Assembly: GCA_965230395.1 (NCBI GenBank)
Contig: CBDDKV010000002.1
Span: 6,456,926 to 6,520,925, forward strand
Direction: 5' to 3'
Source: Bacteroidales bacterium
GTDB taxonomy: Bacteria; Bacteroidota; Bacteroidia; Bacteroidales; UBA10428
DNA: 64,000 nt
Shown piece by piece: positions 48,005 to 64,000 of this stretch. Made by a program: the position numbers and the translations under genes. Each line of letters begins with the position of its first letter. The stretch's first letter is position 1. The notes beneath the pieces were generated by a model, which made no database searches, had not been told where the DNA came from, and was given only the letters and a program-made list of their open reading frames with translations.

Positions 48005-49741
48005 TTAGAAGCTCCCCTCAAAATTCATTTTCTTGTCCTCCCGTTTTACAAGGAAGTTGAACATGTAGCTGTAGGCAAAGTTTACTGAATAACGGGTTGA
48101 CGTGCCCTGTAATCCGTTGTTGTTGACCATTGCCCAACTAAGGTTGAAGTTGTGCCGCTTTTGTAAGGTGTACCCCCCGGTTAAGCGCAGGTTGACAATG
48201 TTGGCTATTGTCCCTTCATTGTTTGAGGAATTGCTGTATGTCCCAATAAATGCTGCTTTAAAACTCTCAAAAAATGCCTTTTGTACCGACAGGTTGTAAC
48301 TCATAACAGTCATGGTGGTTTCCGGCATTTTGTTGTGGTTATGGTTTACCGAGGTTGATATGTTCAAACGCTGCGGTATCAGGGAAAACTGGTACGATAA
48401 GGTTGAGTTGTATATCTGGTTCCCGACAAACCGTTCATCGTCTTCCTGTTGTTCCGATGCTTCCTGATAGGTGAACCCGGCATTCAGGTTCTGCCGTATT
48501 TGTTTAGTGCTTTGAATGATGTAGTTCAGGTTGATGGATTCTGTCAGGTTTAACTGGGTGAACGACAAAGTGTCCAGGTTCTCAAATTCGTTGGTCTGGG
48601 TTACCTCGTTGTAAATGTCTTTAATGTGGACATGCGTCTGCAAATTCGAGATGCTTCCGGCCACGTTCAGTTTCTTTGTAATTGCTGATGATACATTGGC
48701 CGAGTAAATCATCCGTGCGCTGGTGTTGGTTTTCTGTTCTTCCAGGTTGTCGCGCTGGTAACCGGCATCCATCGCAAGGTTCACCCGTTTCTTTATTGAA
48801 GTTGAAAAGTTGGCGGTGATGTTTTCAAAGTCGTTGTTGAAGTAATAGGCCCCTAATGTTTTATAATTTGGGTCCACCCTCTCATAAGTTGCCCCTATCT
48901 GCCCAATTTTCGAGCTTTGGCCTATGCTGGCCTTAAATGCATGATAAGTCGATTTGTCCCCATCGCGGGTCAAAAACAATCCCCCTTCTGATGGCAGGCT
49001 GTCAATTTTGCTGATGTCGTGGTTCATGGCACTTATGGCATATTCTGCCATAAACGACAGGTTATTGACCATTTTCAGGTTGATGGCCGCACTTCCGCAG
49101 ATGTTGTCCTGCGGTTTCAGGTAGGTGCTGTCCGGTTCCGGAAAGTAGACGGAGTTTTCACCGTCTTTTGCTTTGAACACATTGACGCTTGCATCTATTT
49201 TTTCGTTCAGGTATTCGAGTTTCAGCCCACCCCCCATGCGTTTGTAGGACGGCCCTGTCCCGGTTGTGTCCGGGTTGACTGCTTTTCTTAACCTTCCGTA
49301 CATGGCCGATATTTTAAATGTTTCTCCGGGGGTAAGTTCTACGCCTCCGCCCAGAAATTCGTGCCCTGCCAAGGTGTAGGGCGAAAAGTTCATGCTGGCA
49401 TACCCAATGTGGGTTGTTATCCATTTGTAAGATGGTGACATCGAAAAGCGGTTAAAGGGCTGGGGCAGTTGGGACGTTACCTGGTTGTTCGTATAGGCAA
49501 ACGAGAACGGCAGGTTGACCACCCCGAACAGCATGGTGTTGATGTTCCCGGACAGGTACCAGGAGTAATCGTTCCCCGGGGTGTTGGTGTCGGGTGAGAA
49601 ATTGGCGATATGGCTCATGGACACCCCGCCATTGGTTGTCATGATGGGTGCTTTTGCCACTTCTTCGATGTCCTGGGCGTTGATGTTTCCGGTAAGCGCC
49701 AGGGCTGTAATGATAAAAATAATGATTAATACTTTTTGCAT
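48005..49741 (-). CDS. Predicted outer-membrane beta-barrel protein of the TANFOR-toxin locus
   Basis: Signal peptide (INA-Q); amphipathic beta-strands throughout; ends ...SVNFAYSYMF...EGSF. Confidence 0.7.
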   Translation of the reverse strand: MQKVLIIIFIITALALTGNINAQDIEEVAKAPIMTTNGGVSMSHIANFSPDTNTPGNDYSWYLSGNINTMLFGVVNLPFSFAYTNNQVTSQLPQPFNRFSMSPSYKWITTHIGYASMNFSPYTLAGHEFLGGGVELTPGETFKISAMYGRLRKAVNPDTTGTGPSYKRMGGGLKLEYLNEKIDASVNVFKAKDGENSVYFPEPDSTYLKPQDNICGSAAINLKMVNNLSFMAEYAISAMNHDISKIDSLPSEGGLFLTRDGDKSTYHAFKASIGQSSKIGQIGATYERVDPNYKTLGAYYFNNDFENITANFSTSIKKRVNLAMDAGYQRDNLEEQKTNTSARMIYSANVSSAITKKLNVAGSISNLQTHVHIKDIYNEVTQTNEFENLDTLSFTQLNLTESINLNYIIQSTKQIRQNLNAGFTYQEASEQQEDDERFVGNQIYNSTLSYQFSLIPQRLNISTSVNHNHNKMPETTMTVMSYNLSVQKAFFESFKAAFIGTYSNSSNNEGTIANIVNLRLTGGYTLQKRHNFNLSWAMVNNNGLQGTSTRYSVNFAYSYMFNFLVKREDKKMNFEGSF

Positions 49742-49849
49742 GGTTTTGTTTGCTGCTTCTTAATTTAACCTTTGTGTTATTTACGTGGCATACATTCTTT
49801 GCTTTTCAAATTTCGACGGCAGGTGCCACGCCACCCCCGTCTTTGTGTT

Positions 49850-49895
49850 CCCAGGGCGTTGCCCCGGGCTAAATTGGCCTGCCCTTTCAGGGCGG
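49850..49895. repeat. REP-like GC-rich palindromic element
   Basis: CCCAGGGCGTTGCCCCGGG followed by GCCCTTTCAGGGC. Confidence 0.6.
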
Positions 49896-49939
49896 TCCCA
49901 AACTCCCTGGCCGACAGCTTTAAACACATAAAACTTCAC

Positions 49940-49980
49940 CCATAACCCATAACCCATAATTCATAACTCATAATTATATA
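49940..49980. repeat. Heptamer tandem repeat (CCCATAA/CTCATAA units)
   Basis: CCCATAA CCCATAA CCCATAA TTCATAA CTCATAA TTATATA, immediately after the Fn3 gene stop. Confidence 0.8.
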
Positions 49981-52038
49981 TCACATTTTCACTGTTATCG
50001 TTTTGCTTAGGGCCGATGTGCTTCCATCGCCGTAGACTGCTTTGATGGCATACCGATATGTTTTTTCTGGCCTGATTTTTTTGTCCATGAATATATCTTC
50101 TTCGGAGTTTCCGTATAGGCGGAGCTGTCCGTCCCCCTCCGCACGGTATACCAATATGCGTTTTACTTCTTTTTCTGACTCTATCTTCCAGGTGAGTTTC
50201 ACCCTGTCGGTCTGTGCCCGTTTCTTTAGTTTGATGCTTTCGGTTATGCCTGATGGCATCTTGAAATACCCCGTGTTTGATGGCGGCGATTGCAGTTTGC
50301 TGTCATCTATTGCTGTTACGTAATACACATATTCTTTCCCGGCTTCGGTCTGTTTGTCTGTAAAGGTTGAACGGGTTTCCGGTTGCTTTTCTATTGTCCC
50401 GATTTTCTGGTACAGGCTGTCTGTCATTTCTTTCCGGTAAACATGGTGGTGTATGACATCGGTACTGGAGCTGTTTACCCAGGTTAGTTCCGGGTTGCCG
50501 TCTTTTCCTTCGATGTTTTTAAGTACCGGGGAGACTGGTGGTATAATGTCCGGGCGTTTTAGGGTCAATAATTCGGAGAATGCCGACTGGTTCTGGCGTA
50601 CATCCACGGCTTTTACTTTGTAGTAAATGTTTTTCGTTAATGTTTTTATGTTGATGGAATCGGTAAATACGGTGTCCTTTATTACTGCCGGGGCTGCCAG
50701 CATAAACTCAAACTTTGGGTTGTTTGCCCGGTAAACCCGGTAGCCTTCCAAATCCTCATCACTGTTTGGTAGCCAGGTGATGGCCACTTTTCCGGTGCTG
50801 TCTACTTTTCCCAAAAGTCCTGTTGGTGGTCCCGGCGGGAAGCTGTCTACCCGCTCGGCATAGGTTTTTATGGATGAGAATTTTTCCGTCTGCTGGTTGT
50901 AGACTGAAATCATGTAGTAATTCGTAAAGTTGGCCGTGCTGTCGGTAAATTCCCGGCTTTCCGGTTCTTTTCCTTCATAGACCAGTTTTTTTCTTCCCTT
51001 TGGTTTTGTGGAGCGGTATAGCTTAAACCCGGAAATATATCCGTTCATTTTTTGTGGGTATTCCCATTGCAGTTTTACCTCTTTGTTGTCGATAACCTGG
51101 TGGTCTGTTATTACTGGCGCTGTTGTTATGGGCAATGTCCCGGTCCCGAAAACAGAATCTGATGGCGGGCCAACTTCCCCAAAGGCACTGGTCCCCCTTA
51201 CCCTGTAATAAAAGGTTGTCCTGTTGTCGGGAAAGGTGTCTGTTTTGTACATCCTGTCCGGGTTTACGCCCTTATCTGATACCTGTACAATGGCATTCTC
51301 ACTGGCCCTTTTGTATGTCTTGCCCCCGTCTGTCGATTTTTCCAGTATGTAGCTGTTGTAAATATGGTTGAGGTACTGGATGTTCCATGACAGGTTGGCT
51401 TCCTTGTCTTTCCATTCGGCTTTTAATCCTATGGGTTTTGGCAATGGCTGGTATTCGGACAGGCCGGTAAATGCAAATGCCGTATCGCTTGCCAGTGAAT
51501 CCGGGCAGTTGATATAGACCCTGTACAGGTATTTTTCGTCCGGTTTTGCGGTTTTGTCCGCAAGGTACAGCCCCGAAAGTTCTGCTGCCGTTAGTGACTG
51601 GTCGGCAGCGAATAAGGCAAAACTGAACCTGTGTTTTTCTTCCTTGTACTTTTTGTAGGCGATATGCGGGTTGCCTGCCGCTGGTATATCTTTATAATAA
51701 GAACCATAGATACACTCGGCCGCTATTCCAATGTATTTGTTGCCGTCTACGTGTCTTTCCCATTTCTCTAATGGTGCCGGCTTGTATGGCTCCGGGGTAA
51801 GGGTTGTTTCCGGGATGTCTTTAGGGATTTTCTTACCCTGCAAAACAGTGTAGCGCTTTACAATGTAGCCGTATTCATTCCCTAACCGCCAGGTTTTACT
51901 GTTTGCCGGTGCCCAGCGCAGCAGGATAGAATTCTGACGCGGGGAACACAGGAGCTGGATGTTTTCTTTTTGCGCCTGTACTTTTATGCTTATTGCCAAT
52001 ACTGCTATTAGTAGTGCTTTGTATTTACTTTTAAACAT
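49981..52038 (-). CDS. Secreted multi-fibronectin type III domain protein
   Basis: Signal peptide (VQA-Q); repeated Fn3 patterns (ILLRWAP, LSWN...YILEKS, ITWLPNSDEDLEGYRVYR, YYKVKAVD, YRYAIKAVY). Confidence 0.88.
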   Translation of the reverse strand: MFKSKYKALLIAVLAISIKVQAQKENIQLLCSPRQNSILLRWAPANSKTWRLGNEYGYIVKRYTVLQGKKIPKDIPETTLTPEPYKPAPLEKWERHVDGNKYIGIAAECIYGSYYKDIPAAGNPHIAYKKYKEEKHRFSFALFAADQSLTAAELSGLYLADKTAKPDEKYLYRVYINCPDSLASDTAFAFTGLSEYQPLPKPIGLKAEWKDKEANLSWNIQYLNHIYNSYILEKSTDGGKTYKRASENAIVQVSDKGVNPDRMYKTDTFPDNRTTFYYRVRGTSAFGEVGPPSDSVFGTGTLPITTAPVITDHQVIDNKEVKLQWEYPQKMNGYISGFKLYRSTKPKGRKKLVYEGKEPESREFTDSTANFTNYYMISVYNQQTEKFSSIKTYAERVDSFPPGPPTGLLGKVDSTGKVAITWLPNSDEDLEGYRVYRANNPKFEFMLAAPAVIKDTVFTDSINIKTLTKNIYYKVKAVDVRQNQSAFSELLTLKRPDIIPPVSPVLKNIEGKDGNPELTWVNSSSTDVIHHHVYRKEMTDSLYQKIGTIEKQPETRSTFTDKQTEAGKEYVYYVTAIDDSKLQSPPSNTGYFKMPSGITESIKLKKRAQTDRVKLTWKIESEKEVKRILVYRAEGDGQLRLYGNSEEDIFMDKKIRPEKTYRYAIKAVYGDGSTSALSKTITVKM

Positions 52039-52073
52039 GAAATTAAAAATCATTACTTTTTATTTTTTTCTAG

Positions 52074-52336
52074 CTGCCCTTTCGGATTTGAAATCCGAAA
52101 GCTTTGGACTGTGGATTTGTAATCTACCCTATTCAACCTCTTTAATTAGACCTATTCCTCCGTTATAATCCCGGGCAGAGTGTTTCAAATAATATTTGTA
52201 TCCGTCTGATATTTTATTCTTTATTCCCATTCAGTTTTATACTATTTTGCTACAAAACTTGCTGTTCTATTTCTAAATACCGGGGTTGCAAATCCCCGGC
52301 TCTTTCTTCTGGATTGCAAATTCGGAAGAGCGGGAG
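52074..52336. repeat. REP/REPIN-like element: two pairs of GGATTTG-A-AATCC hairpins in inverted orientation
   Basis: CTTTCGGATTTGAAATCCGAAAG (52079-52101), GTGGATTTGTAATCTAC, CCGGGGTTGCAAATCCCCGG (52280-52299) and TCTTCTGGATTGCAAATTCGGAAGA (52305-52329). Confidence 0.7.
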
Positions 52337-52375
52337 TTTATAAAACTTTAACCACTTTTTTACTCAGTCTAAAAC

Positions 52376-53383
52376 CTAATCATTACGTTTCTCAAATACA
52401 TGAAAAGTGTTATCTCTTGTAAGCACATATAAAACCGAATCATATACTTGAATATCTACCACTTGTCCATTCTTTGGTTTAAAGTTATAAACCCATTTAA
52501 GGTTATTATTATTTAAATCCAATATACCTACTCTGGAAAAGTTTTCCCCAATGTTTTGTACAAAGTAAAATTCGTTATCTTGAACAACAAATTTATTTGG
52601 CCAAATCTGAAGTTTCTGTCTTTTTAAAACACTTATATAATCAATTGATTTACTTTTTAAAGTAACAGGATCCAAAATTTGAACTTGGTTCGGATATCTT
52701 ACACAATACAGTTGATTATTGAATTTTATGAAATTCCCTCCAAAATTATCAATTTTTTCAATTACGTTTCCAGTTTTTCTATTTAAACAAAAAGTAGCTG
52801 ATTGCTTCTCTGATGAAGCATAAAAGATAAGTCGATCTTTGATAACAATTACATCAGATTGGATTTGAGTATTCACTCCTAATAATTGTTCTAAACCATA
52901 TCTCCAAAGAATTTCACCATCAATTAAAGATTGACAAACCAATCCATTTGAAAACTTTAAGAATGATTCGCTTTTGAAAACTGCTTTCAATCTTCCGTCA
53001 GATAAAGAACAATAGTCTTTGATAGTATTTGTTTGAATGTTGAATGTTGAAATGATCACTTCATCACCCATTCCTTTTTCAAACCAAATTTCATCATCAT
53101 TAATTTGAACTGGAAATATATCCATTTCCAGAGAATCTGTAACTTCTCCTGTCTTTTTACTAACCTTCCTTAATAACTGATATTGATGAAAGGGAAGTAT
53201 ATAATTCTTGTTACTAAATGACAACCACTGTGTTTCTAATTCTGGTGTCATCCATACCAAGTTATTTAAATTATCATATTTACACAGTTTCGAATCAACC
53301 GTAAACAGGTATATCCCGTTTTCTTCAATTAATGAAATTGAGCCAATATTATTTAAAGATTGAATTAAATAATGTATCATCAT
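52376..53383 (-). CDS. Putative immunity protein, PQQ-like beta-propeller
   Basis: No signal peptide; very AT-rich; overlaps the toxin stop by 35 bp; propeller-blade motifs CQSLIDGEILWRY, CLNRKTGNV and LDLNNNNLKWVY. Confidence 0.65.
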   Translation of the reverse strand: MMIHYLIQSLNNIGSISLIEENGIYLFTVDSKLCKYDNLNNLVWMTPELETQWLSFSNKNYILPFHQYQLLRKVSKKTGEVTDSLEMDIFPVQINDDEIWFEKGMGDEVIISTFNIQTNTIKDYCSLSDGRLKAVFKSESFLKFSNGLVCQSLIDGEILWRYGLEQLLGVNTQIQSDVIVIKDRLIFYASSEKQSATFCLNRKTGNVIEKIDNFGGNFIKFNNQLYCVRYPNQVQILDPVTLKSKSIDYISVLKRQKLQIWPNKFVVQDNEFYFVQNIGENFSRVGILDLNNNNLKWVYNFKPKNGQVVDIQVYDSVLYVLTRDNTFHVFEKRND

Positions 53384-56300
53384 TAAACTTATTTATAAAA
53401 TCATCAATGTTTCTTATTTTGACATCTGGGAAAAATGATTGTAGCTTTCCATCATTAAATAATGGTTTCAGTGCATCTTTCCCCTTTTTTGAAGAAAGAT
53501 AATTAATCAAATCTGATTTAGAAAGCTTAGAATTGCCAAGTTGTTTCCATGATATTTGAGATAAATAATTTGCATTAAATAAATCTCTCTCAATAAACTC
53601 GTCTATTATTTCATCCTTGTTAATTTTTCGGTCCATCCATTTTACTTCAACATACTTCGGGCGGTTACCTCCAATTTCTATATCAATTTTTGAATTACGA
53701 TTGGTTTGTCGAATATTTGGAACATCTAGTTCAAACGTAAGATTTTTACCTTTGTATTCATTTATATTTTCCGTTATCTCTTTAATTACTCCATGAGCTC
53801 CTTTTCGTTTTTGAATAGTGGTCCTTTTAGATAATTGGTCAACAATTTTACTAAAGTCATTAAGATGAGTTCCTTTGTTTTTTTTAATAAAATTGGTCAA
53901 TAAATTCAGCTGTTCAAGAACATTTGCATATCCATGCGGAGAATAGTGTCCTGCAATATTTCCCAGTATCTCGTCAGTTAATCCTAAATTGAGCCTATGT
54001 GTATTGCTTCGTAGATTATTTAATGCCTCTATTGCATCCATATTTCGGGTTAATGCCTTTGAAAGATCTCCACTTCCTGTACGTCCATTTCTATAAAGAA
54101 TATCCCAGCTATCCACTAATCCAGAATTTGCATCAAATTTGTGAAGCTTTTGAGAACTATTTCCAAAGCCTGCCATAAATTCATCCCACTTCTTAGTACT
54201 CCATCCGGAGAAAGGTGTTTTATTCTTTAATGAGGCAATAATTTCATCAACTGAGCCAATAGTCTGGTCAATAATTTCATCAAGCTTTTTAAGTTTATCG
54301 GTATCATCAGATAATTTAGATATTTCCTTTATCTGATCTTTAGAAATTTTCTTTTCCTTGTAAAGCTTTGTAAATAGATCTGACTTTCCTTTTAATAGAG
54401 CAGGATCAGTAAATTTTAATAGTCCTGCAGCTGCTTCATCATAGAGGTCTGCTTTTGATAAAACTTTAATGAATTTTTTACTATTATCAAATATCCAGAC
54501 AGATCCCTTATAAACTACTTTTATCAATTCAGGTCCATACTTAAACACAACAGAACCGACCCCAACTGCTGCAAGACCAACGGAATATGCGGTTATATTA
54601 TCAATATCCCCTCTAAAAGAAGAATATGCCAAACCAGCTACATCCGCAAAATTATCTACTATTGGAATTAGACCTGCAAGATCAATTATTGTATATATTA
54701 TCGGATCTATCACCGACAACTTCGAAAATCCATATATGTATTTATCCAGATCCTGGTAATTATCGTGAGGGTCATCAGCATCACTGCTTCCAAAAGCAAT
54801 ATTTAATTCATTCCACCACTCCAGAAATCCACTTGTTACAAATGCCTGCTTTGTTGCAAACATCATCACGTTTTCTTTTGTAATGTATTTTTCCTTAAAG
54901 ATTTTTGATGTTACTCTTTCCCAACCATTAGGATCATTTTTGGCCTGCTCAAGTAAATTAATTACCTGAATATCATACTCAAATTTTTCTATATCATAAT
55001 TTGGGTTCTTTATGGTTGAACCTCCCCCTGCAGATGCGATGAAAATATATTCGTCTGGTTTATTCAGTTTCCTGATTCTATCAAACTCAGGTCTTTTGTA
55101 AAATGTCACAGTATTAATGTATGAATAACCATACTCATTCCCGTTATCCTTTTCATCGTATGAGATTGTACCATCGGCATTTAAACATGCTACAAATTGC
55201 CTGCAAGGTTTTTCCAACCACTTGTATGCCCCAATTATGTATTGATAGGTAGTTTTATAGTCTCCATCATAAAAATCCTTTTTAAGAATATGAGAGGCAT
55301 CATGTATACCGGGCATCATGTATTGCCATTTAACACCTGTGATATATTTTTCAACACTTGTAAACGGAAGAACGATAAGTATTGTGTTCTCCTGGAAATT
55401 AGCCGGTAAATTTGGACTTGCTGCTTCATAAACGGAAGTTGAAAAATCATTAGCAAGAGAATAATTATTATCGTAATCAAAAATGAACGGAACATACCCC
55501 GCTATAACGAAAATCGTTTTTCCGGTTTCTTCTTTTAAATACTGTAGTTTATGTTCAAGTAATGAAAGGTTTTCAACTCTGTTTTCAAATTGAAGTAAGT
55601 CTGCATTTATTATATGATAGAATTTATCTCCATATAAATTAGGGTCATTTTTAGCTGTTGGATATTTATTGGCCGCAGAAACTAATACCTCTGCAAATTT
55701 GTTTATGTATTCATTGGAAAGTTCTTTCTGGACTTCGTTATCAACCTCTTTTTTTATATCAAATCCTGTAGGTTTGAATTTTTCTTCAAATACCTTTTTA
55801 GCACGAATATTACAGGCAGCCTTATCTTTTAAAGATCCAAATTTACTTTTATATTCATCACTAAATATTAGCTTTTCTTCATCTATTGTACCTGTACCCG
55901 TTTTATTTCCATCTTCCAATCGATCTTTAACATGTTTGAATTTTATATTATATAGTTCAACCTTGCACTTACCTATATACCCAAGTACAACATCTGAATC
56001 ATCTGTTAAAGTAGCAGTTTGATTATCTACAACGCATTCCGGCTTGTCATCTGTGTACTTGTATCTTTTATTAATTTTTTCTTCTGCCGGATTTATAAGT
56101 TTCGAATAACCATGGAACTCTTTCGTTTTTCTATGATAAATTCCGGTATATTTTTGTTTGCCTATAAAATAAGCTGTAACAGCACCTTCAGGAATATCAT
56201 CATTTATGCCAACAAAAGAAATAGAGGTTACTCCATCGGGTAAAGTAAAAGGTATACCTGCCGGAGTAAGACACGTAATTTTACCTTCTAATTCTACACC

Positions 56301-59069
56301 ACTCTCTTTTGCACTACAAATAAGATCATTGATCCCAATACTCTCCCCCTCTTTCTCATCCTGTGCCCAGGAGAACCAGAGTTTATCAGGCGATTGTACG
56401 AGTTGCCACTGGTGCTTCCAGAGTTCTGTTCCTCCTTTGTAGTCCATCAGGTTTTGGGTAGAATGCTCTGCAGCAAGGAATCTCTTATCGCTAAATGTGT
56501 GATAGAGGTTAAATGCCCCGTGTCCTAACTCGTGTGCTACGATGTTATTACCCGGATTATCGTAAATAAAACCTACCTGCCGTTGTAATGGCATATACCC
56601 GGCTATGCTTCGTCCTTTGTATTGCACATCTTCAACAAAAAACAGATAGCAGGCATCTTTCTCAAGTTTTCCGTTTTTATCCTCAAATGCTTTTACTATG
56701 GTTTTCTGATCTTTATTGTAGGTTGAAAATGCTGAACTTTCTCCGTGGGTCATTTTGCCATTCTCAAAAACAACATCCTCAAGGTTATCAACTGACACAA
56801 CTTCCCAACTTGTTACTGCCTGGGCATATACTTTATTGAGGGTCTTTTTAAGTTCGCTTTCTTGCGGCAGTTTTGCCCCATTTACCGGAACGATATAAAC
56901 TTTTTTTGCCTGTTCGTCGAAACTAAAGATATTTAGCTTTCCAACGACTTTCTCGGTTGTATCATTAATTTTCTGGTATGCGTAAAGAGCAACTTCAGAG
57001 CCACCTGAAGCTCCCCTTACGGTAAGGTCTTCTCCGGTTTTAAGTGCCGGTATGCCCATCTCATCTTTAAAGATAATGTTGTCACCATTTTCGGAGACTC
57101 CTACTTTATCTGTCCCAAAGCTGGCAACACTTTTGTAAGCCGGCCTATACCCGTTTTTCAGGGGTGGATATTCCGTATCAAGGGCTGATTTTTCTTCATT
57201 GTACAGATCGAAACCAAACTTCTGTTTGTCCGATGCTTTAAAAGCAACTTCTTTTGTTGATGAAAGGTTTTCGGTTTCCTGCTTTTCTTTATGTTCTTTT
57301 ATCTTTCTGGCATTTCCACCACCTGTTTGTTTATATTCGTTAACGCCCATTACCTGGCCGTCTTTCGTCACAACGTACTCTTCGCCATTTTTACCTTTGA
57401 TCATTGTTTTTTCAATGTCATCGGCATTGTTGTTTATTACTACTTCATGAATCTCACCCTTCTCATCAACGGTAACTGCAATTACAGAATCCCCTCCGTT
57501 TATATAAATAGAAGTAATTTCTTCGTTTACGCTTAAAGTGTCTTTTATCCGGGCATCCAGCGTAAGTGTGTTTACCGAATTGGCCAGGTTATTCAGGTAG
57601 TTTGTAGTGGCGTCAATATCGACCAGAAATTGTGGATCGTAAACACTTTCAAAATCCATGTTTACAATAACATTTTCTTTGTTTACCTGTAGGTCCCAGT
57701 ATTCGCAGATAAACTTCAGGTTCCAGACTTCTGCCCAGAACAGGAATAAGCCTTTATAAACGCCGTTGCCCTGAGGCTCCACAGTTTTAATGATAAACCT
57801 TGTTGTTCCTGTTTTATTTACAATTGTGTCTCCCGGTTTCAGATCTTCATTTAATTCGAAGTTCTCAAGATCAACGTTGGGGATCATGTCATCGCATCCG
57901 CAATCGGGGCAAGAAGCAGTATCAATCAGGGGTTCTGGTTCGGGAATGGAAAGTGTTTTCCAGGGGGTAAAATCACTGGTTGATTCCGGGTCGCCATTAC
58001 AGACTGCCTGTACCCTTAATTCATATGTTGTTCCGTATTCAAGATCGAAAAACTCAACTTTATTTTCAAAAGTCTGGCTTTGTGACACCCAACCTGTTTC
58101 CGGATTCCGGATTTCGGTATTGTACGATGTATGGTTCGACTGCGGCTCCCAATCGAATAGTCCGTTTCTGGCACGGTGTGAAGCAGTGAAGTCGGTAACC
58201 GTATCACATAATGCTTTGTACACAAAGGTGCGGATTTCGCTTTGCCCTTTCTGCTCAAAGGATACAAATCCGGCTATATCCGATGCTGTTACCCGCCATG
58301 CGTATTTCATTCCGGGTTCCATCATAAGTGTTGCCGGGTAAAGCGAATAGAGGGTGTTGTATGTTGTATGTTCGTGAAAAACGGGCATTGATGCTGCAAC
58401 AACCTCTGGAGCAATCCCGTCAATACGCATCTCCCACATTTCAAGTTTGTACTGTATGTTATTTGCCGATACCGGACTTCCTACATTACTGGCCAGCCAT
58501 GAGAATGTTATGGGCATTCCTTTAAACTGTCCTAAATCTGTCTCGTTCTCCGGAATTTTTAATACGGGTGGTTTTCCTACTGCTATCCATGCCGAGGTTG
58601 TTCCTGTATTTGATATTAACCTGTTGGTGTGGGCATGTAGCACTTGTACTGATATTTTATAAAAACCTTCCGGCAGCTGGCCTGTGCGGTTATATGCTTC
58701 TTTCTCGTAACCTTTGAATACCAGGTTTTTTATGTTAAAATAATCCAGCAGATCCTTCCCATACAATATGCTTGTTGAACCTCCGTCGAGGTAGATAGGG
58801 CTTGCGTTTATGGTTGGCGGGTTTTCTATTACAATTCCGGCTGTCTCCATTTTGATTCGGAGTTTTACCGGCAGGTTTGATATGTTCAGGTCGTTTACGG
58901 TAACATTTACCATTAACTTTTGCGATCCGAATTTACTGTAATCGCTCAGGTTAAGTGAATAAGGTGGTGTTAACGTTGGTGTTACGTATATCGGGTAATT
59001 GGTTTGTGCAAATACACCTGTAAGTACTAACTGACAAAAAAGTATTGCTATAATTACTGCTTTCCGCAT
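53349..59069 (-). CDS. TANFOR-type polymorphic toxin: signal peptide, TANFOR-like N-terminus, Fn3, HEXXH zincin-like domain, pre-toxin helix region and PD-(D/E)XK-like C-terminal domain
   Basis: VFA-QTNYPIYVTPTLTPPYSLNLSDY; LPEGFY; LEYGTTYELRVQAVC; AHELGHGAFNLYH (56520-56534); IDLAGLIPIVDNFAD; KIDIEIGGNRPKYVEVKW (53641-53690). Confidence 0.8.
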   Translation of the reverse strand: MRKAVIIAILFCQLVLTGVFAQTNYPIYVTPTLTPPYSLNLSDYSKFGSQKLMVNVTVNDLNISNLPVKLRIKMETAGIVIENPPTINASPIYLDGGSTSILYGKDLLDYFNIKNLVFKGYEKEAYNRTGQLPEGFYKISVQVLHAHTNRLISNTGTTSAWIAVGKPPVLKIPENETDLGQFKGMPITFSWLASNVGSPVSANNIQYKLEMWEMRIDGIAPEVVAASMPVFHEHTTYNTLYSLYPATLMMEPGMKYAWRVTASDIAGFVSFEQKGQSEIRTFVYKALCDTVTDFTASHRARNGLFDWEPQSNHTSYNTEIRNPETGWVSQSQTFENKVEFFDLEYGTTYELRVQAVCNGDPESTSDFTPWKTLSIPEPEPLIDTASCPDCGCDDMIPNVDLENFELNEDLKPGDTIVNKTGTTRFIIKTVEPQGNGVYKGLFLFWAEVWNLKFICEYWDLQVNKENVIVNMDFESVYDPQFLVDIDATTNYLNNLANSVNTLTLDARIKDTLSVNEEITSIYINGGDSVIAVTVDEKGEIHEVVINNNADDIEKTMIKGKNGEEYVVTKDGQVMGVNEYKQTGGGNARKIKEHKEKQETENLSSTKEVAFKASDKQKFGFDLYNEEKSALDTEYPPLKNGYRPAYKSVASFGTDKVGVSENGDNIIFKDEMGIPALKTGEDLTVRGASGGSEVALYAYQKINDTTEKVVGKLNIFSFDEQAKKVYIVPVNGAKLPQESELKKTLNKVYAQAVTSWEVVSVDNLEDVVFENGKMTHGESSAFSTYNKDQKTIVKAFEDKNGKLEKDACYLFFVEDVQYKGRSIAGYMPLQRQVGFIYDNPGNNIVAHELGHGAFNLYHTFSDKRFLAAEHSTQNLMDYKGGTELWKHQWQLVQSPDKLWFSWAQDEKEGESIGINDLICSAKESGVELEGKITCLTPAGIPFTLPDGVTSISFVGINDDIPEGAVTAYFIGKQKYTGIYHRKTKEFHGYSKLINPAEEKINKRYKYTDDKPECVVDNQTATLTDDSDVVLGYIGKCKVELYNIKFKHVKDRLEDGNKTGTGTIDEEKLIFSDEYKSKFGSLKDKAACNIRAKKVFEEKFKPTGFDIKKEVDNEVQKELSNEYINKFAEVLVSAANKYPTAKNDPNLYGDKFYHIINADLLQFENRVENLSLLEHKLQYLKEETGKTIFVIAGYVPFIFDYDNNYSLANDFSTSVYEAASPNLPANFQENTILIVLPFTSVEKYITGVKWQYMMPGIHDASHILKKDFYDGDYKTTYQYIIGAYKWLEKPCRQFVACLNADGTISYDEKDNGNEYGYSYINTVTFYKRPEFDRIRKLNKPDEYIFIASAGGGSTIKNPNYDIEKFEYDIQVINLLEQAKNDPNGWERVTSKIFKEKYITKENVMMFATKQAFVTSGFLEWWNELNIAFGSSDADDPHDNYQDLDKYIYGFSKLSVIDPIIYTIIDLAGLIPIVDNFADVAGLAYSSFRGDIDNITAYSVGLAAVGVGSVVFKYGPELIKVVYKGSVWIFDNSKKFIKVLSKADLYDEAAAGLLKFTDPALLKGKSDLFTKLYKEKKISKDQIKEISKLSDDTDKLKKLDEIIDQTIGSVDEIIASLKNKTPFSGWSTKKWDEFMAGFGNSSQKLHKFDANSGLVDSWDILYRNGRTGSGDLSKALTRNMDAIEALNNLRSNTHRLNLGLTDEILGNIAGHYSPHGYANVLEQLNLLTNFIKKNKGTHLNDFSKIVDQLSKRTTIQKRKGAHGVIKEITENINEYKGKNLTFELDVPNIRQTNRNSKIDIEIGGNRPKYVEVKWMDRKINKDEIIDEFIERDLFNANYLSQISWKQLGNSKLSKSDLINYLSSKKGKDALKPLFNDGKLQSFFPDVKIRNIDDFINKFNDDTLFNSIFK

Positions 59070-59079
59070 CTTTTCTAGT

Positions 59080-59155
59080 TATAAATTATGAGTTATGTGT
59101 TATGAGTTATGAGCTGTTTTTTCACTTATCACTCATAACCCATAACTTATCACTA
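59080..59155. repeat. Two inverted arrays of heptamer repeats
   Basis: TTATAAA TTATGAG TTATGTG TTATGAG TTATGAG ... CTTATCA CTCATAA CCCATAA CTTATCA. Confidence 0.8.
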
Positions 59156-59158
59156 TTT

Positions 59159-62100
59159 TTATTCTATAATCATTTTAATTTGTCGGCGCTCGTCTTTTGC
59201 ATTCAGCATGATAACATAAGCCCCTGAGTTCAATCCTCCAAACTGATAGTCAAACACATACTCCTTCAGTCCGTAATCAAAGCGTTCATCAATGATGTCG
59301 CCATAGCTTACACTGAACAGTACAACCCTGACATCTGCCTCTTCGCGCAATTCAATTTTTAGCTGGAAGTTTCCATCGTTCGGATTTGGCATTACCAGCA
59401 GTGATTTTATAAGCGGTTCCCTGTAACCGATAATTCCGGTTGTATCACCTGAATCGCTGCCCTCAGTTATTTCTACCTGTTTTGAAACTTTGGAAATACA
59501 GCCTCCGGAATATGCCCACAATTCAACATTGTAAATTCCTGTTTGCTTACTTTCCAACTCGAATACATATGAAGGTAGCTCGTTATGTGTTACATCAATA
59601 AAAGCTTCGTTATTGAATATCCACTTCAGGCTGTCAAGTTCAAGGTTCGACAATTCAAAAATTGACATGGTATCTCCAAGATAACTTTCGGATGTCATAA
59701 GAAATTCGGCATCCAGGGCATCGTTTCCAATTGTCAGTCCTATTGAGTCCCACGCAAAGCAACCGATGCTGTTTGTTACCTCAAGGAAGTATTCTCTTTG
59801 ATCGCCAATTTCAACAAACCGTTCATTTGAGATAACTCCGTCGGTAGTTGACCATTTATGGGTTGAGAATTCCTGTCCGTCAATTGTGATTGTATTTCCG
59901 GGACATATCTGTATATCTTCCCCTAAATCAACAATTAGTTTATCCGGTTCATCTATTTCAAATGCCTGGTCAAAACGGCAGTTATGCTTGTCTGTTAATA
60001 TCAGGCTATATGTTCCTTTGTAAAGTGAATCGGCTATATAGGTTGTATCTCCGTTTGTCCATTTGAATTTATACCCTCCGACACCTCCAATGGGCTTGAA
60101 GTCGATAAAGCCGTCGTTATAACCAAAGCAGTGAGCATCTTTTATTCCGGCAACTTCACCCCATAGCGAGTCAGGGTGATCAATTTCGTAACTCCGGCTT
60201 GTAAAGCAATTGTGCTTATCGGTCAGGTAAAGGCTGTAAATTCCCTTCTTAAGTGTATCGGCTACATTTGTAGTATCTCCATTCGACCATTTATACCGGT
60301 AGCCTCCAACTCCGCCTTCTGCCCTGATTTGGATATATCCGTCATTGTATTTAAAGCAATCGGCATCTTTTATTCCGGTAACAACACTGTTTAGGGAGTC
60401 GGGATGATCAATTTCGTAATAATTTGTTGTTGTACAGTTATGGGTGTCGGTTAACAATACGCTATAACGTCCTTTGTAAAGGGTATCGGCAGTATTTGTG
60501 GTATCTCCATTTGACCATTTGAATTTGTACCCGCCAACGCCTCCAAGTGCCTGAACCGTAATGTGGCCATCGTTATATCCATAGCAATCGGCATCTTTGG
60601 AGTCTGTCAATACTGTTGTTACAGAATCGGGCTGACCGATTGCAAACTGGTCGAGTGTTTCGCATTTGTTAGAATCGGTGACCAATACTTCATACTGACC
60701 GATATAAAGTGAATCGGCAGTATTCGTGGTGTCGCCATTTGACCATTTGAACCTGTAATTCCCTACTCCCCCGGTTGCACTTACTTTGATAAATCCGTCG
60801 TTATAACCATAACAGTCAGCATCTTTAGCGCTCTCAAAAATTACTTTTAATGAATCGGGCTGTGTTATTTCGAAGTATGTCGTTGTTGTACAGTTATTCG
60901 TATCGGTAATGGTTGCCGGATATGTTCCTATTGCATATCCCGTTGATGTTGGCCCGGTATCTCCGTTTGACCAAGTAATCTGGTACGGTGCAAATGGCAC
61001 TGCCGGTTCTGCTTTTTTCACGGTTGCCGTTCCGGTATTCCCCCCGAAACACAATACCCTGGTGGTATCGATGTCGGTTATTACAGGGTTGACAGACGGG
61101 TTTATCCGTTGTTCCAGTTTTTGCGGACAGTTATGAACATCCAGAACATTAAGGAAATACAATCCGCTTTGTTCAAGTGCTGATACTGTACTGTCGGTAC
61201 TTAATGTGTTATGGGCTGCATCTCTCCACTGGTAACGATATGGACGTGTCCCCCCCTGCATGGCCACCGTTATTGAGCCGTTATCTGTTTCGCATGTGGT
61301 ATGTGTTACATCGATTTTATTGAACAACAACGAATCGGGCTCCGGCATATAAACGGTTAATGTATCCTGACCAACGCAGTTGTTGCTATCAGTAAATACA
61401 AAGGTGTAATGTCCCTCTGAGAGGTTTCCTGCCGTTGTATCTTTTGTCCAGACATTCGGGGCTGTTTCAAAGGCAAACCTGTATGGTTTTGTACCCCCGT
61501 CAACCGAGAAGTCAATAACTCCGTCTGATGCACTTTTACAGTTTACACTGTCTACAAATTTGGTTTTTGCCCTGAGGTATTCCGGTTCGGTAATGATGAT
61601 TGTCACGCTGTCTTCCACTCCCATTTTATCGGTGAGGTAGAAATAATGTTCCCGCACATCGAGGTTGAGCCAGTTTTTACTGTTTGAATAATATTCTGAG
61701 CGGTCCTGGCGGAACTGGTAATCTCCCCATCCTCCTTCGGCTTCAAGCTTTACATAGGCATCTTCGTAGTCTTTACAGCTTTCGTTACGGAATTCTGTAA
61801 TACTTATCTTTAGTGGTTTTTTCGGTTGTTTTATTTCAATGGTTGCTGTTACAGGGTTGCCATACTTATCGGTTGCTGTAAATTTATATTTTCCGGCCAG
61901 GGCATTGGTTAACACTCCTGCACTTTCAAATGCTTCTGTATCCAAAGACATTGTTGGGGATGCCAGTGATTCCCATTTATAGGTATTGCCTCCTGCTCCT
62001 CCTGAAACATCTACTTTTATGGTTCCGCTGGCTTCTCCAATGCGTTTTGCGTGGTTAACCTGAACGTCGGAAATGTAAAAGCGTTCGTAAGGTTTTATTT

Positions 62101-64000
62101 CAAACTGTACATAGGCTTTTTCGCCTTGTATATTGGTTGCCGACACAAAATACTCTCCACCTGAAAGGTTTTGGAGGTATATTACATCATTTTTGGCTGA
62201 GAAAGTGCTTGTTTTATCCGTAATATTAAATGTACTTCTGACACCATCAGGATCAATCAGTTCTACTTTTTCCAGATTCTTTAGTCCTGATGTTAAATGT
62301 GCATAGCCATTCTTAGCCTCGTAAGAGGTTTCATCTTCTTTTTCAATTATTTTCAATGGGATATCGCTCAGGTCGGGAAGATATACCCTTCGTGACTTGC
62401 TGCACCCTCCTTTCTCGGTTACCGTAAGTTCGTAATGCCCGGACGAGAGCCCGGAAAGTGTTGAAGATGAACCCGGGATACTGCTTCCCTGATACTTTTT
62501 CCATGCATAAGTTAACGGCGATTTTCCACCACTCACATGAGCCTGCACTGCCCCATTTTTACCTCCATCCGTTGTTGGATAAGTTACGCTGAACTTACTT
62601 ATTTCAAGCAACATGCTATCTGTTAGCGATGTTTCAATATTGAAACGGCACTCGTTGCTGTCGGTAAGCATCAGCAAGTGTTCCCCTGCCGGCCTGTTGT
62701 TATAATCAAGTACTTTAGGGAAAGGTATTTTTGTGGTGTCAGTTTCGTTTTCAAATACAAGCTTGTATGGCCGGGTACCGCCGAATACATTTACTGACAG
62801 GCTTCCATTGTCATTACATGTTGGCGCTTCTGAGGCAACCAGCTTTGCTTTCAGGCTGTCTTTTGGTTCGTGAATTATGATGGTATCGGTAAAAATTGCC
62901 CCCATTTTATCGCGCACACTTACCAGGTAACTTCCGGCATAAAGGTTTTCAAAAGTATTAATTGAATAGTACCCTTTATCGGACGCCCTTTTAAATTTGT
63001 AATCGCCCCAGCCGCCAAAGCCTTGTATGCTAAAACTTCCTGTATGTGCCTTACATTTTGCATCGTTTTTACTGACTACTGTAAAACCAAGTTCTTGTGT
63101 AGGCTCGGGAACTGTTATTTTAGGCGTGGTGTAGCTACAACCTTTAAAATCGGTCACTTTTAGTCTGTATTCTCCTGCATACAGGGAATCAAAGCTGTAA
63201 GGGAAGCGGTTCATCATACGGGTTTGATCAATCTCTGTTCCTGATACATTGAGTAACTGCAGGTCTTTTAGTCCATCGTTTCCACCTTGCAGGGTACTTT
63301 GAATAATACCTGTGTTTTTGCCCTTGGTAATTACAGGATGAATATTGTCTACCGTGATTTCCAATTCGGCATCGGGCTGGTTTACAAATACGGGGTATGC
63401 CTTGTTGGAACGGCAGCCTTTAGCATCAAAAGCGTATACTTCGTAATTCCCTGTTTTCAGTTTTTTAAACGTGTTATCTGGTGTATTTAACATTTCGGAA
63501 TGGCCAACATTTGAGCCCTGAATTTCCAGTCGTTTTAAATTTTCTGAATTTCCTTTTGCGGAAATAATTACCTCCCCGTTTGATTCTCCAAAGCACTTTA
63601 CGTCGGTTACTTCCGCCTGAGTTACTTCCGGATTCTTATATTCATTCAGTACAATATTCTGGTTAGTTGTACACTCTTCGTTATCCCGCACCGTAAGGAC
63701 GTATGAGCCATGTTTAAGTTTGTCCCCTAAATTTGTTATTGTATTGGAATTAAGGTTTCCATAAGGTTTGAATACCGAATTATCGCGTTTCCATTCGTAC
63801 CTGTACAAACCGTTTCCTCCCTGTACTTCAACTGCTATTGCTCCGTTTTCCAGCTCGCATGTTGGTTGCATTACATGAGAGTCTTTTATTTCTAATCTTT
63901 TGGGTTCTGTAATTTTAGTCTCACCTACCTTTACCCCGTCACATTGATGGTTGCCATCGCGCAGGTAAATGTTATAGTTCCCGGGCCTTAAGCCCTCCAT
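59159..64000 (-). CDS. Large SprB-repeat adhesin-like T9SS cargo with type-A C-terminal sorting domain (5' end beyond the window)
   Basis: Many C-x-G-x-x-DG-x-I...GG-x-x-PY-x-Y-x-W...G-x-Y-x-x-x-VTD-x-N-x-C repeats; CTD LLVMPNPNDGNF...LNSGAYVIML...KMIIE. The frame is open to the window edge. Confidence 0.92.
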   Translation of the reverse strand: MEGLRPGNYNIYLRDGNHQCDGVKVGETKITEPKRLEIKDSHVMQPTCELENGAIAVEVQGGNGLYRYEWKRDNSVFKPYGNLNSNTITNLGDKLKHGSYVLTVRDNEECTTNQNIVLNEYKNPEVTQAEVTDVKCFGESNGEVIISAKGNSENLKRLEIQGSNVGHSEMLNTPDNTFKKLKTGNYEVYAFDAKGCRSNKAYPVFVNQPDAELEITVDNIHPVITKGKNTGIIQSTLQGGNDGLKDLQLLNVSGTEIDQTRMMNRFPYSFDSLYAGEYRLKVTDFKGCSYTTPKITVPEPTQELGFTVVSKNDAKCKAHTGSFSIQGFGGWGDYKFKRASDKGYYSINTFENLYAGSYLVSVRDKMGAIFTDTIIIHEPKDSLKAKLVASEAPTCNDNGSLSVNVFGGTRPYKLVFENETDTTKIPFPKVLDYNNRPAGEHLLMLTDSNECRFNIETSLTDSMLLEISKFSVTYPTTDGGKNGAVQAHVSGGKSPLTYAWKKYQGSSIPGSSSTLSGLSSGHYELTVTEKGGCSKSRRVYLPDLSDIPLKIIEKEDETSYEAKNGYAHLTSGLKNLEKVELIDPDGVRSTFNITDKTSTFSAKNDVIYLQNLSGGEYFVSATNIQGEKAYVQFEIKPYERFYISDVQVNHAKRIGEASGTIKVDVSGGAGGNTYKWESLASPTMSLDTEAFESAGVLTNALAGKYKFTATDKYGNPVTATIEIKQPKKPLKISITEFRNESCKDYEDAYVKLEAEGGWGDYQFRQDRSEYYSNSKNWLNLDVREHYFYLTDKMGVEDSVTIIITEPEYLRAKTKFVDSVNCKSASDGVIDFSVDGGTKPYRFAFETAPNVWTKDTTAGNLSEGHYTFVFTDSNNCVGQDTLTVYMPEPDSLLFNKIDVTHTTCETDNGSITVAMQGGTRPYRYQWRDAAHNTLSTDSTVSALEQSGLYFLNVLDVHNCPQKLEQRINPSVNPVITDIDTTRVLCFGGNTGTATVKKAEPAVPFAPYQITWSNGDTGPTSTGYAIGTYPATITDTNNCTTTTYFEITQPDSLKVIFESAKDADCYGYNDGFIKVSATGGVGNYRFKWSNGDTTNTADSLYIGQYEVLVTDSNKCETLDQFAIGQPDSVTTVLTDSKDADCYGYNDGHITVQALGGVGGYKFKWSNGDTTNTADTLYKGRYSVLLTDTHNCTTTNYYEIDHPDSLNSVVTGIKDADCFKYNDGYIQIRAEGGVGGYRYKWSNGDTTNVADTLKKGIYSLYLTDKHNCFTSRSYEIDHPDSLWGEVAGIKDAHCFGYNDGFIDFKPIGGVGGYKFKWTNGDTTYIADSLYKGTYSLILTDKHNCRFDQAFEIDEPDKLIVDLGEDIQICPGNTITIDGQEFSTHKWSTTDGVISNERFVEIGDQREYFLEVTNSIGCFAWDSIGLTIGNDALDAEFLMTSESYLGDTMSIFELSNLELDSLKWIFNNEAFIDVTHNELPSYVFELESKQTGIYNVELWAYSGGCISKVSKQVEITEGSDSGDTTGIIGYREPLIKSLLVMPNPNDGNFQLKIELREEADVRVVLFSVSYGDIIDERFDYGLKEYVFDYQFGGLNSGAYVIMLNAKDERRQIKMIIE
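59951..60862 (-). repeat. Four tandem 76-aa (228-bp) highly similar SprB-type repeats
   Basis: Units start (Q/H)PDS and share KDAxCxxYNDG, GGVGxYxxKWxNGDTT and ADxL. Confidence 0.9.

Follow-up and report, generated by a model that had tools for sequence, protein, structure and literature searches.

Polymorphic toxin systems combine a conserved N-terminal trafficking part with a C-terminal toxin that is swapped between relatives and an immunity gene directly downstream. In two-partner secretion (TpsB-TpsA, CdiB-CdiA) the gene of an outer-membrane (OM) barrel stands beside that of a very large Sec-exported protein, which is recognised via a conserved N-terminal domain, and some cargoes of two-partner secretion or contact-dependent inhibition (CDI) have exchangeable toxin domains at the end and immunity genes behind them. 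Here we analyse a 64,000-nt stretch from a Bacteroidales bacterium (assembly GCA_965230395.1, contig CBDDKV010000002.1, positions 6,456,926-6,520,925 of the forward strand; hereafter the window), in which the genes of a TANFOR-like toxin and its candidate immunity protein are accompanied by those of a SprB-repeat adhesin, a fibronectin type III (FN3) protein and a predicted OM beta-barrel. The TANFOR polymorphic toxins of Bacteroidetes, with BaCT and BaCTic, were described by Jana, Salomon and Bosis (2020; PMC7073777), whose criterion was an RPS-BLAST match to the TIGR02542 position-specific scoring matrix (PSSM) with E<=1e-7 over at least 90 aa. BaCT is a Mg-dependent DNase of the PD-(D/E)xK type that is neutralised by BaCTic-family immunity and whose conserved region, in the last ~300 aa, has an invariant (D/E)xK at its centre (PMC7073777). 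The main text of that article proposes the type IX secretion system (T9SS) as exit and names no OM partner; the barrel, the protein X and the specific FN3 family described below are absent from that account. Full-text literature searches, which covered the article of Jana et al. apart from its supplements, returned only that article as treating TANFOR, and none of the texts names an OM partner or this barrel.

On balance our favoured reading of the locus is a TANFOR-like toxin with a matching immunity protein and, in the neighbouring barrel, the likely OM partner which exports or anchors the toxin via an N-terminal handle. The five open reading frames (ORFs) listed in an earlier, sequence-only reading of this DNA are all present and co-oriented on the minus strand at the coordinates given there. 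In the order of transcription they encode the SprB-repeat adhesin (59159..>64000, ORF and SprB match), a 1906-aa toxin (53349..59069, ORF and paralogue comparison), a 335-aa immunity candidate (52376..53383), a 690-aa FN3-family protein, Fn3fam (49981..52053, fn3 match and AlphaFold2 model), and a 578-aa OM beta-barrel (48005..49741, AlphaFold2 model and structural matches). An interval of 89 nt separates the adhesin gene from the toxin gene downstream, the immunity candidate overlaps the toxin gene by 35 nt, and gaps of 322 nt and 239 nt precede the Fn3fam and barrel genes. Because housekeeping genes come next downstream (two KAS III-like genes, ileS, a dksA-like gene and lspA), we place the end of the locus at the barrel. 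Its extent as five genes had been drawn too short, since two further conserved genes also belong to it, encoding X (1515 aa) and a 301-aa helical protein, both outside the window and upstream of the adhesin. A scan for promoters and terminators found sites no more numerous than in shuffled sequence and was uninformative on operon structure.

The locus shares with the class of Jana et al. (PMC7073777) a Sec signal, an N-terminal TANFOR-type domain followed by FN3, a C-terminal toxin part that varies and, directly after it, an immunity gene. It shares with their Flavobacterium hydatis example an SprB-type adhesin gene immediately upstream, here with only a sub-threshold candidate for the T9SS C-terminal domain (CTD). 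The ExK motif of the window toxin lies ~100 aa from its end; in BaCT, E1724 and K1726 fall in a domain of aa 1542-1841 (PMC7073777). Unlike the proteins of Jana et al., the handle scores only 18-23.6 bits against a TIGR02542 cut-off of 67. Toxin, immunity gene and adhesin neighbour are thus biology already known from the main text of that article, and what we describe is a known toxin class attached to an apparently undescribed barrel-based module.

The toxin and the 335-aa ORF bear the signature of a polymorphic toxin and candidate immunity pair of the TANFOR-like class, because the C-termini are swapped, GC content is low, the C-terminal domain recurs and the overlapping partner has no signal peptide. 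Compared in blocks of 100 aa, a paralogous toxin of this genome shows 60-79% identity as far as ~aa 900 but only 13-25% beyond that point, and it ends in Peptidase_M15_4 where the window toxin ends in an ExK domain; the part that had been taken for the toxin is thus the part that varies between paralogues. In the toxin gene, GC content drops from 0.42-0.45 over the 5' half to 0.29-0.34 towards the 3' end, and it stays in the latter range through the immunity gene. Both loci combine a conserved N-terminal part, differing C-terminal domains and an overlapping downstream gene, as is general for polymorphic toxins. The C-terminal toxin domain, delimited by similarity to other toxin C-termini, spans about aa 1640-1906 (53352..54152, minus strand) and carries D1797...E1808-x-K1810. 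Within the length range searched, only two other proteins bear it, the TANFOR-type toxins P0125 and P0126, whose C-termini share 33-34% identity with it and retain D...ExK and FIERDLF; both have the same first 950 residues and one has PT-HINT. The domain is also found on the TANFOR toxin of genome G243, and D1797...E1808-V-K1810 is conserved in all three, a comparison made among these proteins rather than with any BaCT sequence or PSSM. An Atlas look-up of the toxin C-terminus gave a weak lead to Tox-REase-7 (score 0.87, below 0.9), and a sequence comparison with solved structures returned nothing useful for this domain. We predict from these features a nuclease of the PD-(D/E)xK type.

The immunity candidate, which the earlier reading had called a signal-less partner, has indeed no hydrophobic segment and no signal peptide. 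It gives weak propeller matches (PQQ_2, E 0.032; NWD2 propeller, E 0.012) and is weakly similar (E 2e-4) to the gene that follows the G243 toxin bearing the related C-terminus. The corresponding protein downstream of the paralogous toxin has a signal peptide and a PQQ_2 propeller.

The other end of the toxin begins with a hydrophobic, signal-peptide-like N-terminus (aa 1-24, hydropathy scan), and Pfam and NCBIfam scans found no T9SS tail on the protein, in agreement with its description as Sec-exported and devoid of a T9SS CTD. Directly behind the signal peptide lies the handle, two beta-sandwich-like domains at aa 22-290 (58200..59006, minus strand) recognised by a weak TIGR02542 match and by an alignment of N-termini; it is followed by an FN3 domain at aa 291-360 (57990..58199, minus strand; PF00041, E 2.9e-8). 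TIGR02542 (TANFOR, T_forsyth_147) matches aa 30-156 with E 0.0002-0.002. The score was 18 bits (E 0.0021) with the entire protein as input, 21.1 with its first 400 aa and 23.6 in the genome scan; the TANFOR match thus lies at the N-terminus rather than the C-terminus, and well under the curated cut-off of 67. That cut-off was reached in none of 401 sampled genomes, and we therefore regard the model as narrow. Nineteen aligned N-termini (alignment A2) conserve the LPEGxY and W/Y/G-S-F motifs, and nine of these 19 handle members match TIGR02542 with E<=0.01 (best 2.1e-7). The description of TANFOR by Jana et al. (PMC7073777) as an N-terminal domain of ~147 aa in a large secreted protein, often with FN3, fits the toxin. 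A comparison of the handle profile with solved structures was useless beyond its FN3 part, which alone matched. With a hidden Markov model (HMM) E-value of only ~1e-3 and 18-23.6 bits against 67, the toxin would probably miss the RPS-BLAST filter of Jana et al. (E<=1e-7; PMC7073777).

To relate the handle to the barrel we searched 400 other Bacteroidota genomes, evenly drawn and identical for three single-sequence queries (the barrel, toxin residues 1-290 and Fn3fam residues 1-400), and then compared coordinates. Matches were found in 45 genomes for the barrel, 54 for the handle and 32 for the FN3 family. Barrel and handle occur together in 34 genomes, the barrel only in 11, the handle only in 20 and neither in 335, an odds ratio of 52; its p-value overstates the association, since kinship makes the genomes non-independent. 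For 30 of the 53 barrel matches a handle-bearing gene starts <2 kb downstream on the same strand, and for 7 more a same-strand handle gene lies within 15 kb; 14 have no handle match on the contig and in 2 cases the two are far apart. Seen from the handle (71 matches), a barrel lies within 15 kb in 38 cases, the FN3 family within 15 kb in 25, and neither in 25. Such linkage counts from single sequences are lower bounds. With profile HMMs a barrel adjoins the handle in five of 12 re-fetched loci that had been scored as handle without barrel; a sixth has an upstream 585-aa ORF that ends in an aromatic residue and gives no HMM match. One barrel counted as unpaired (genome G283) has a TIGR02542 match directly downstream, and three fetched loci scored as barrel without handle contain a giant ORF between the barrel and FN3 genes. 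Barrel, handle gene and FN3 gene form a recurring cassette across the phylum. The sequence-only reading would have failed had barrel and Fn3 genes not co-occurred with TANFOR toxins; both prove to be tightly linked with TANFOR-type genes.

The anatomy of the cassette was examined in 18 loci from 20 stretches, picked for having matches and hence not an unbiased set. Nine run barrel, giant, Fn3fam; two run giant, Fn3fam, barrel; and seven are of the toxin type with a standalone X beside Fn3fam. The usual cargo is one giant protein that unites handle and X and has no immunity gene. Loci of the toxin type have the handle on a protein with peptidase and toxin parts (one toxin ends in an AHH nuclease), X is a separate gene, all structural parts are kept and immunity genes are added. 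Because most cassettes carry non-toxin giants without an immunity gene, the module does not appear to be toxin-specific; it would mostly serve such giants, which points to a general display or export module adopted by toxins. The earlier idea of dedicated, undescribed structural genes is thus supported by gene context, but the module extends beyond toxins and has more parts, namely X and the 301-aa protein. At one locus (L045, G309:C4) a standalone 390-aa TANFOR-like handle protein is encoded directly upstream of a 2024-aa ORF, handle and cargo being here on separate predicted polypeptides.

The barrel itself has no Pfam or NCBIfam match at E<=5. Its AlphaFold2 model, built from 40 sequences with a mean predicted local distance difference test (pLDDT) of 80.6, shows a single all-beta barrel with a large lumen and ~26 strands as counted from the DSSP strand list, and the prediction of a barrel made from the letters alone is borne out by the model. 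Homologues number at least 1271; a precomputed Pfam domain is absent from all of the 120 best listed, and those with names are nearly all 'hypothetical', one UniRef entry being an 'Outer membrane protein beta-barrel family' protein. The best structural match is MtrB of the MtrCAB complex (6r2q_B; Z 20.4, 455 residues aligned, root-mean-square deviation 4.5), followed by pilus ushers (Z about 15, also the top Foldseek matches with E 1.6e-9) and porins, with LptD among the Foldseek matches. Like MtrB, whose lumen holds another protein, a cytochrome, the predicted barrel is large; unlike it, it shows 11% sequence identity and no sequence-family match, so that the likeness is one of fold and size only. 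For membership of the MtrB/PioB family we found neither a Pfam match nor a cytochrome gene at the locus. The ushers FimD and PapC are also large barrels and pass folded Ig-like domains, but no plug, N-terminal or C-terminal usher domain was matched in our barrel, and chaperone and pilin genes are absent. A role like that of ushers or LptD was ranked below an MtrB-like sheathing or translocation, given the lower Z-scores and the absence of partner genes. In one family of relatives the barrel ORFs reach 815-825 aa (loci L019, L020 and L021 of genomes G355, G391 and G051, and L018 of G243), with ~250 extra aa that give no Pfam match and are C-terminal in three and N-terminal in L018.

A barrel next to a handle-bearing cargo shares its logic with two-partner secretion, as far as the general description of those systems goes. 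Unlike TpsB, the barrel gives no Omp85 or POTRA match and its ~26-strand model lacks N-terminal POTRA-like periplasmic domains; unlike TpsA, the handle has no match to the two-partner secretion (TPS) domain, and there are the extra conserved partners Fn3fam and X. With neither an Omp85/POTRA barrel nor a TPS domain, the locus falls outside two-partner secretion (type Vb).

We also predicted the complex of the barrel (aa 23-578) with the handle (aa 22-290), a test suggested with the original reading. The score was 0.55 (runs of 0.51, 0.59 and 0.55) against 0.00 for the controls (best of three), with a partner pLDDT of at least 77 and runs agreeing in at least 18% of contacts. The pass mark is reached by 116 of 157 solved complexes and by 2 of 215 mismatched pairs; scores <=0.60 were given by only 18 of the 157 solved complexes, plus both passing mismatches. 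The prediction thus lends weak support to a contact between barrel and handle.

Of the remaining parts, Fn3fam agrees with the secreted multi-Fn3 protein anticipated before (fn3 match, E 2.2e-10). In its AlphaFold2 model (pLDDT 85.2) six beta-sandwich domains form a rod, and a helical insert is seen in the first of them; Foldseek found only generic multi-FN3 rods for this model, and the protein is conserved beside X or TANFOR genes. X is secreted and has no family match; a sequence comparison with solved structures found nothing useful, and an Atlas look-up led to 'hypothetical' clusters only. It is homologous to the C-terminal ~1100 residues of the giants in plain loci (8 ORFs) and to the standalone protein directly upstream of Fn3fam in seven toxin-type loci, with E from 1e-48 to 0. 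An X-like region occurs in 29 of the 67 sampled genomes with any match, and in every comparison made it lay directly upstream of the Fn3fam match of the same locus.

The adhesin is 3395 aa long in the genome, of which the C-terminal 1613 aa lie inside the window, the gene continuing past the window end. Its SprB repeats are clear (E 7.8e-79, Pfam scan). A T9SS type-A tail may be present at sub-threshold level: PF18962 matches aa 1536-1611 of the 1612 scanned with 24.3 bits (cut-off 27), and TIGR04183, a search proposed at the outset, gives 18.1 bits (cut-off 23), both at the extreme C-terminus. Of the earlier description as a >1600-aa SprB protein with a T9SS CTD, the size and the repeats therefore stand, and the CTD matches are in the right place but below their cut-offs.

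Between handle and toxin domain lies a zincin-like HExxH region at aa 546-925 (56295..57434, minus strand), identified by its motif, HELGH at aa 846, and by a Reprolysin_5 match of 19.7 bits (cut-off 27). The region is also present in TANFOR toxins from seven other genomes and, within this genome, in three non-TANFOR proteins, and we infer a processing peptidase. Two hydrophobic segments follow at aa 1450-1475 and 1491-1510 (54540..54722, minus strand; Kyte-Doolittle scan). Two of the proteins with the same HExxH region (C2:2104336-2108694, 1452 aa, and C2:2121904-2125071, 1055 aa) have small ORFs after them. The region looks like a pre-toxin module common to several toxin families in this genome.

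By HMM the genome totals three barrels, three handle proteins and three Fn3fam proteins. The paralogous locus, 500 kb away, contains an adhesin, a TANFOR-like protein, an overlapping gene, three small ORFs, an FN3 protein and a barrel. The Fn3fam-barrel block (48006..52039) is 94.6% nt identical between the two toxin loci (blastn), whereas the toxin 5' part, adhesin and X are only 64-70% identical, which argues that the structural pair was homogenised or replaced recently. At the paralogous locus (L033, C2:6027179-6034903) five tandem lipoprotein genes, for proteins of 432-442 aa with FN3 and Fib_succ_major, stand between the X homologue and the adhesin gene. The third barrel (577 aa, ~30% identity; L035, C2:2128336-2139624) is preceded by a PKD/CHU_C T9SS cargo protein and a PorP/SprF gene and followed by a 1019-aa toxin-like protein, which shares the HExxH region (toxin aa 548-913) and in which profile comparison found no handle. 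The third TANFOR-like protein (1720 aa; L034, C2:2179680-2186879) has a homologue of the 301-aa protein before it and an Fn3fam gene directly after it; there is no immunity-sized gene and no adjacent barrel, the nearest lying 43 kb off across many small ORFs. A piece of the window (49599-49944, the Fn3fam-barrel intergenic stretch and the first 143 nt of the barrel gene) recurs 5.6 Mb away (C2:863300-864850) as four tandem copies of ~300-350 bp, 90-92% identical, each opening a 57-aa ORF with the barrel signal peptide; these may be recombination remnants or a small repeat element.

A mechanism that joins these parts can be sketched. Sec would carry the toxin across the inner membrane, and the handle would dock in or at the barrel, which would pass the remainder to the surface or hold it there. 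X, which in most relatives is fused behind the handle in one giant protein, and the FN3 rod would be accessory structural parts. By analogy we guess that the SprB-type T9SS adhesin supplies cell-to-cell contact and that release of the C-terminal domain and its import are the work of the HExxH region and the two hydrophobic segments; the domain would then cut nucleic acid in a neighbour lacking the propeller-like immunity protein. The role of the barrel as translocon or anchor is inferred from gene context and models. Only tentatively do we extend this to the phylum, in the form of an undescribed OM export or display pathway of Bacteroidota made of a ~26-strand barrel, a two-domain cargo handle, a six-FN3 rod and X, and comparable to two-partner secretion though with unrelated components; this proposal, which we consider possible rather than probable, would make TANFOR toxins cargoes in which X has been swapped for peptidase and toxin to give a contact-dependent weapon with a T9SS adhesin.

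Several observations weigh against a barrel-based route. The handle stays far under the TIGR02542 cut-off. By single-sequence search 25 of the 71 handle matches have neither a barrel nor Fn3fam within 15 kb, and for 6 of the 12 re-examined handle loci the stretch fetched holds no clear barrel. In the genome itself the third barrel is 43 kb from the third handle gene and sits beside a toxin-like protein without a handle. The nuclease assignment rests on a motif and the weak Atlas lead to Tox-REase-7 only. Complex predictions that score in this band are mostly wrong unless the pairing was already likely; because the genes are linked, we hold the prior for this pairing to be high. Finally, Jana et al. 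report T9SS cargo to be enriched near TANFOR genes (PMC7073777), and this, together with the T9SS adhesin in the operon, suits their own hypothesis, by which the toxin leaves the periplasm through T9SS, perhaps bound to the SprB adhesin, and barrel, X and Fn3fam merely hold or organise it afterwards or serve something else. The adhesin gene 89 nt upstream, SprB-like adhesins at three of seven other toxin-type loci, the SprA of the genome (2589 bits) and the third barrel beside a CHU_C cargo protein and a PorP/SprF gene all agree with such a route, as do, in the main text of Jana et al., the enrichment of SprB, Por_Secre_tail and Fn3 near TANFOR genes and a T9SS in >95% of TANFOR genomes (PMC7073777). 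Against this the toxin has no T9SS tail, the nine plain loci give no BLAST match to the window adhesin (they were scanned for this adhesin rather than for other T9SS cargo), and the linkage of handle to barrel is far tighter than that of handle to adhesin, leaving export by T9SS in our view unlikely, though a serious competitor.

The prevalence of non-toxin giants and the lack of an immunity gene in most cassettes would also suit a module for display only, in which a giant surface structure, such as an adhesin or fibril, is built or anchored by barrel, X and Fn3fam. The toxin would then borrow the handle to stay at the envelope until vesicles or lysis set it free, with no contact-dependent apparatus. 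A 3078-aa TANFOR protein is in fact listed in the outer-membrane-vesicle proteome of Tannerella forsythia (PMC10682907). Yet toxin-type loci keep every structural part and gain immunity genes, and a predicted nuclease C-terminus must enter a target cell to act, and we judge display alone to be rather improbable. That chance has put two unrelated envelope genes, those of the barrel and the FN3 protein, next to a toxin, as the gaps of 322 nt and 239 nt and a GC content unlike the toxin 3' end might suggest, is very hard to believe: the genes are neighbours in many genera and in either of two orders, the second locus of the same genome has the same layout, and the co-localisation counts already contradict it. 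Export or anchoring of the toxin by the neighbouring barrel thus remains the reading we prefer.

What this window adds is a toxin-type cassette with X split off, two apparently homogenised copies in one genome and an embedded T9SS adhesin. The main text of Jana et al. left open how TANFOR toxins leave the periplasm, with T9SS as a guess (PMC7073777), and the barrel offers a concrete alternative. The locus is a convenient entry point since its toxin-immunity pair would provide a simple killing read-out for a pathway in which the usual cargoes lack an assay. If the barrel is indeed the exporter, it would represent a new OM pathway for secretion or display, in a phylum dominant in gut, oral, soil and marine communities, and many unannotated giant surface proteins would be accounted for.

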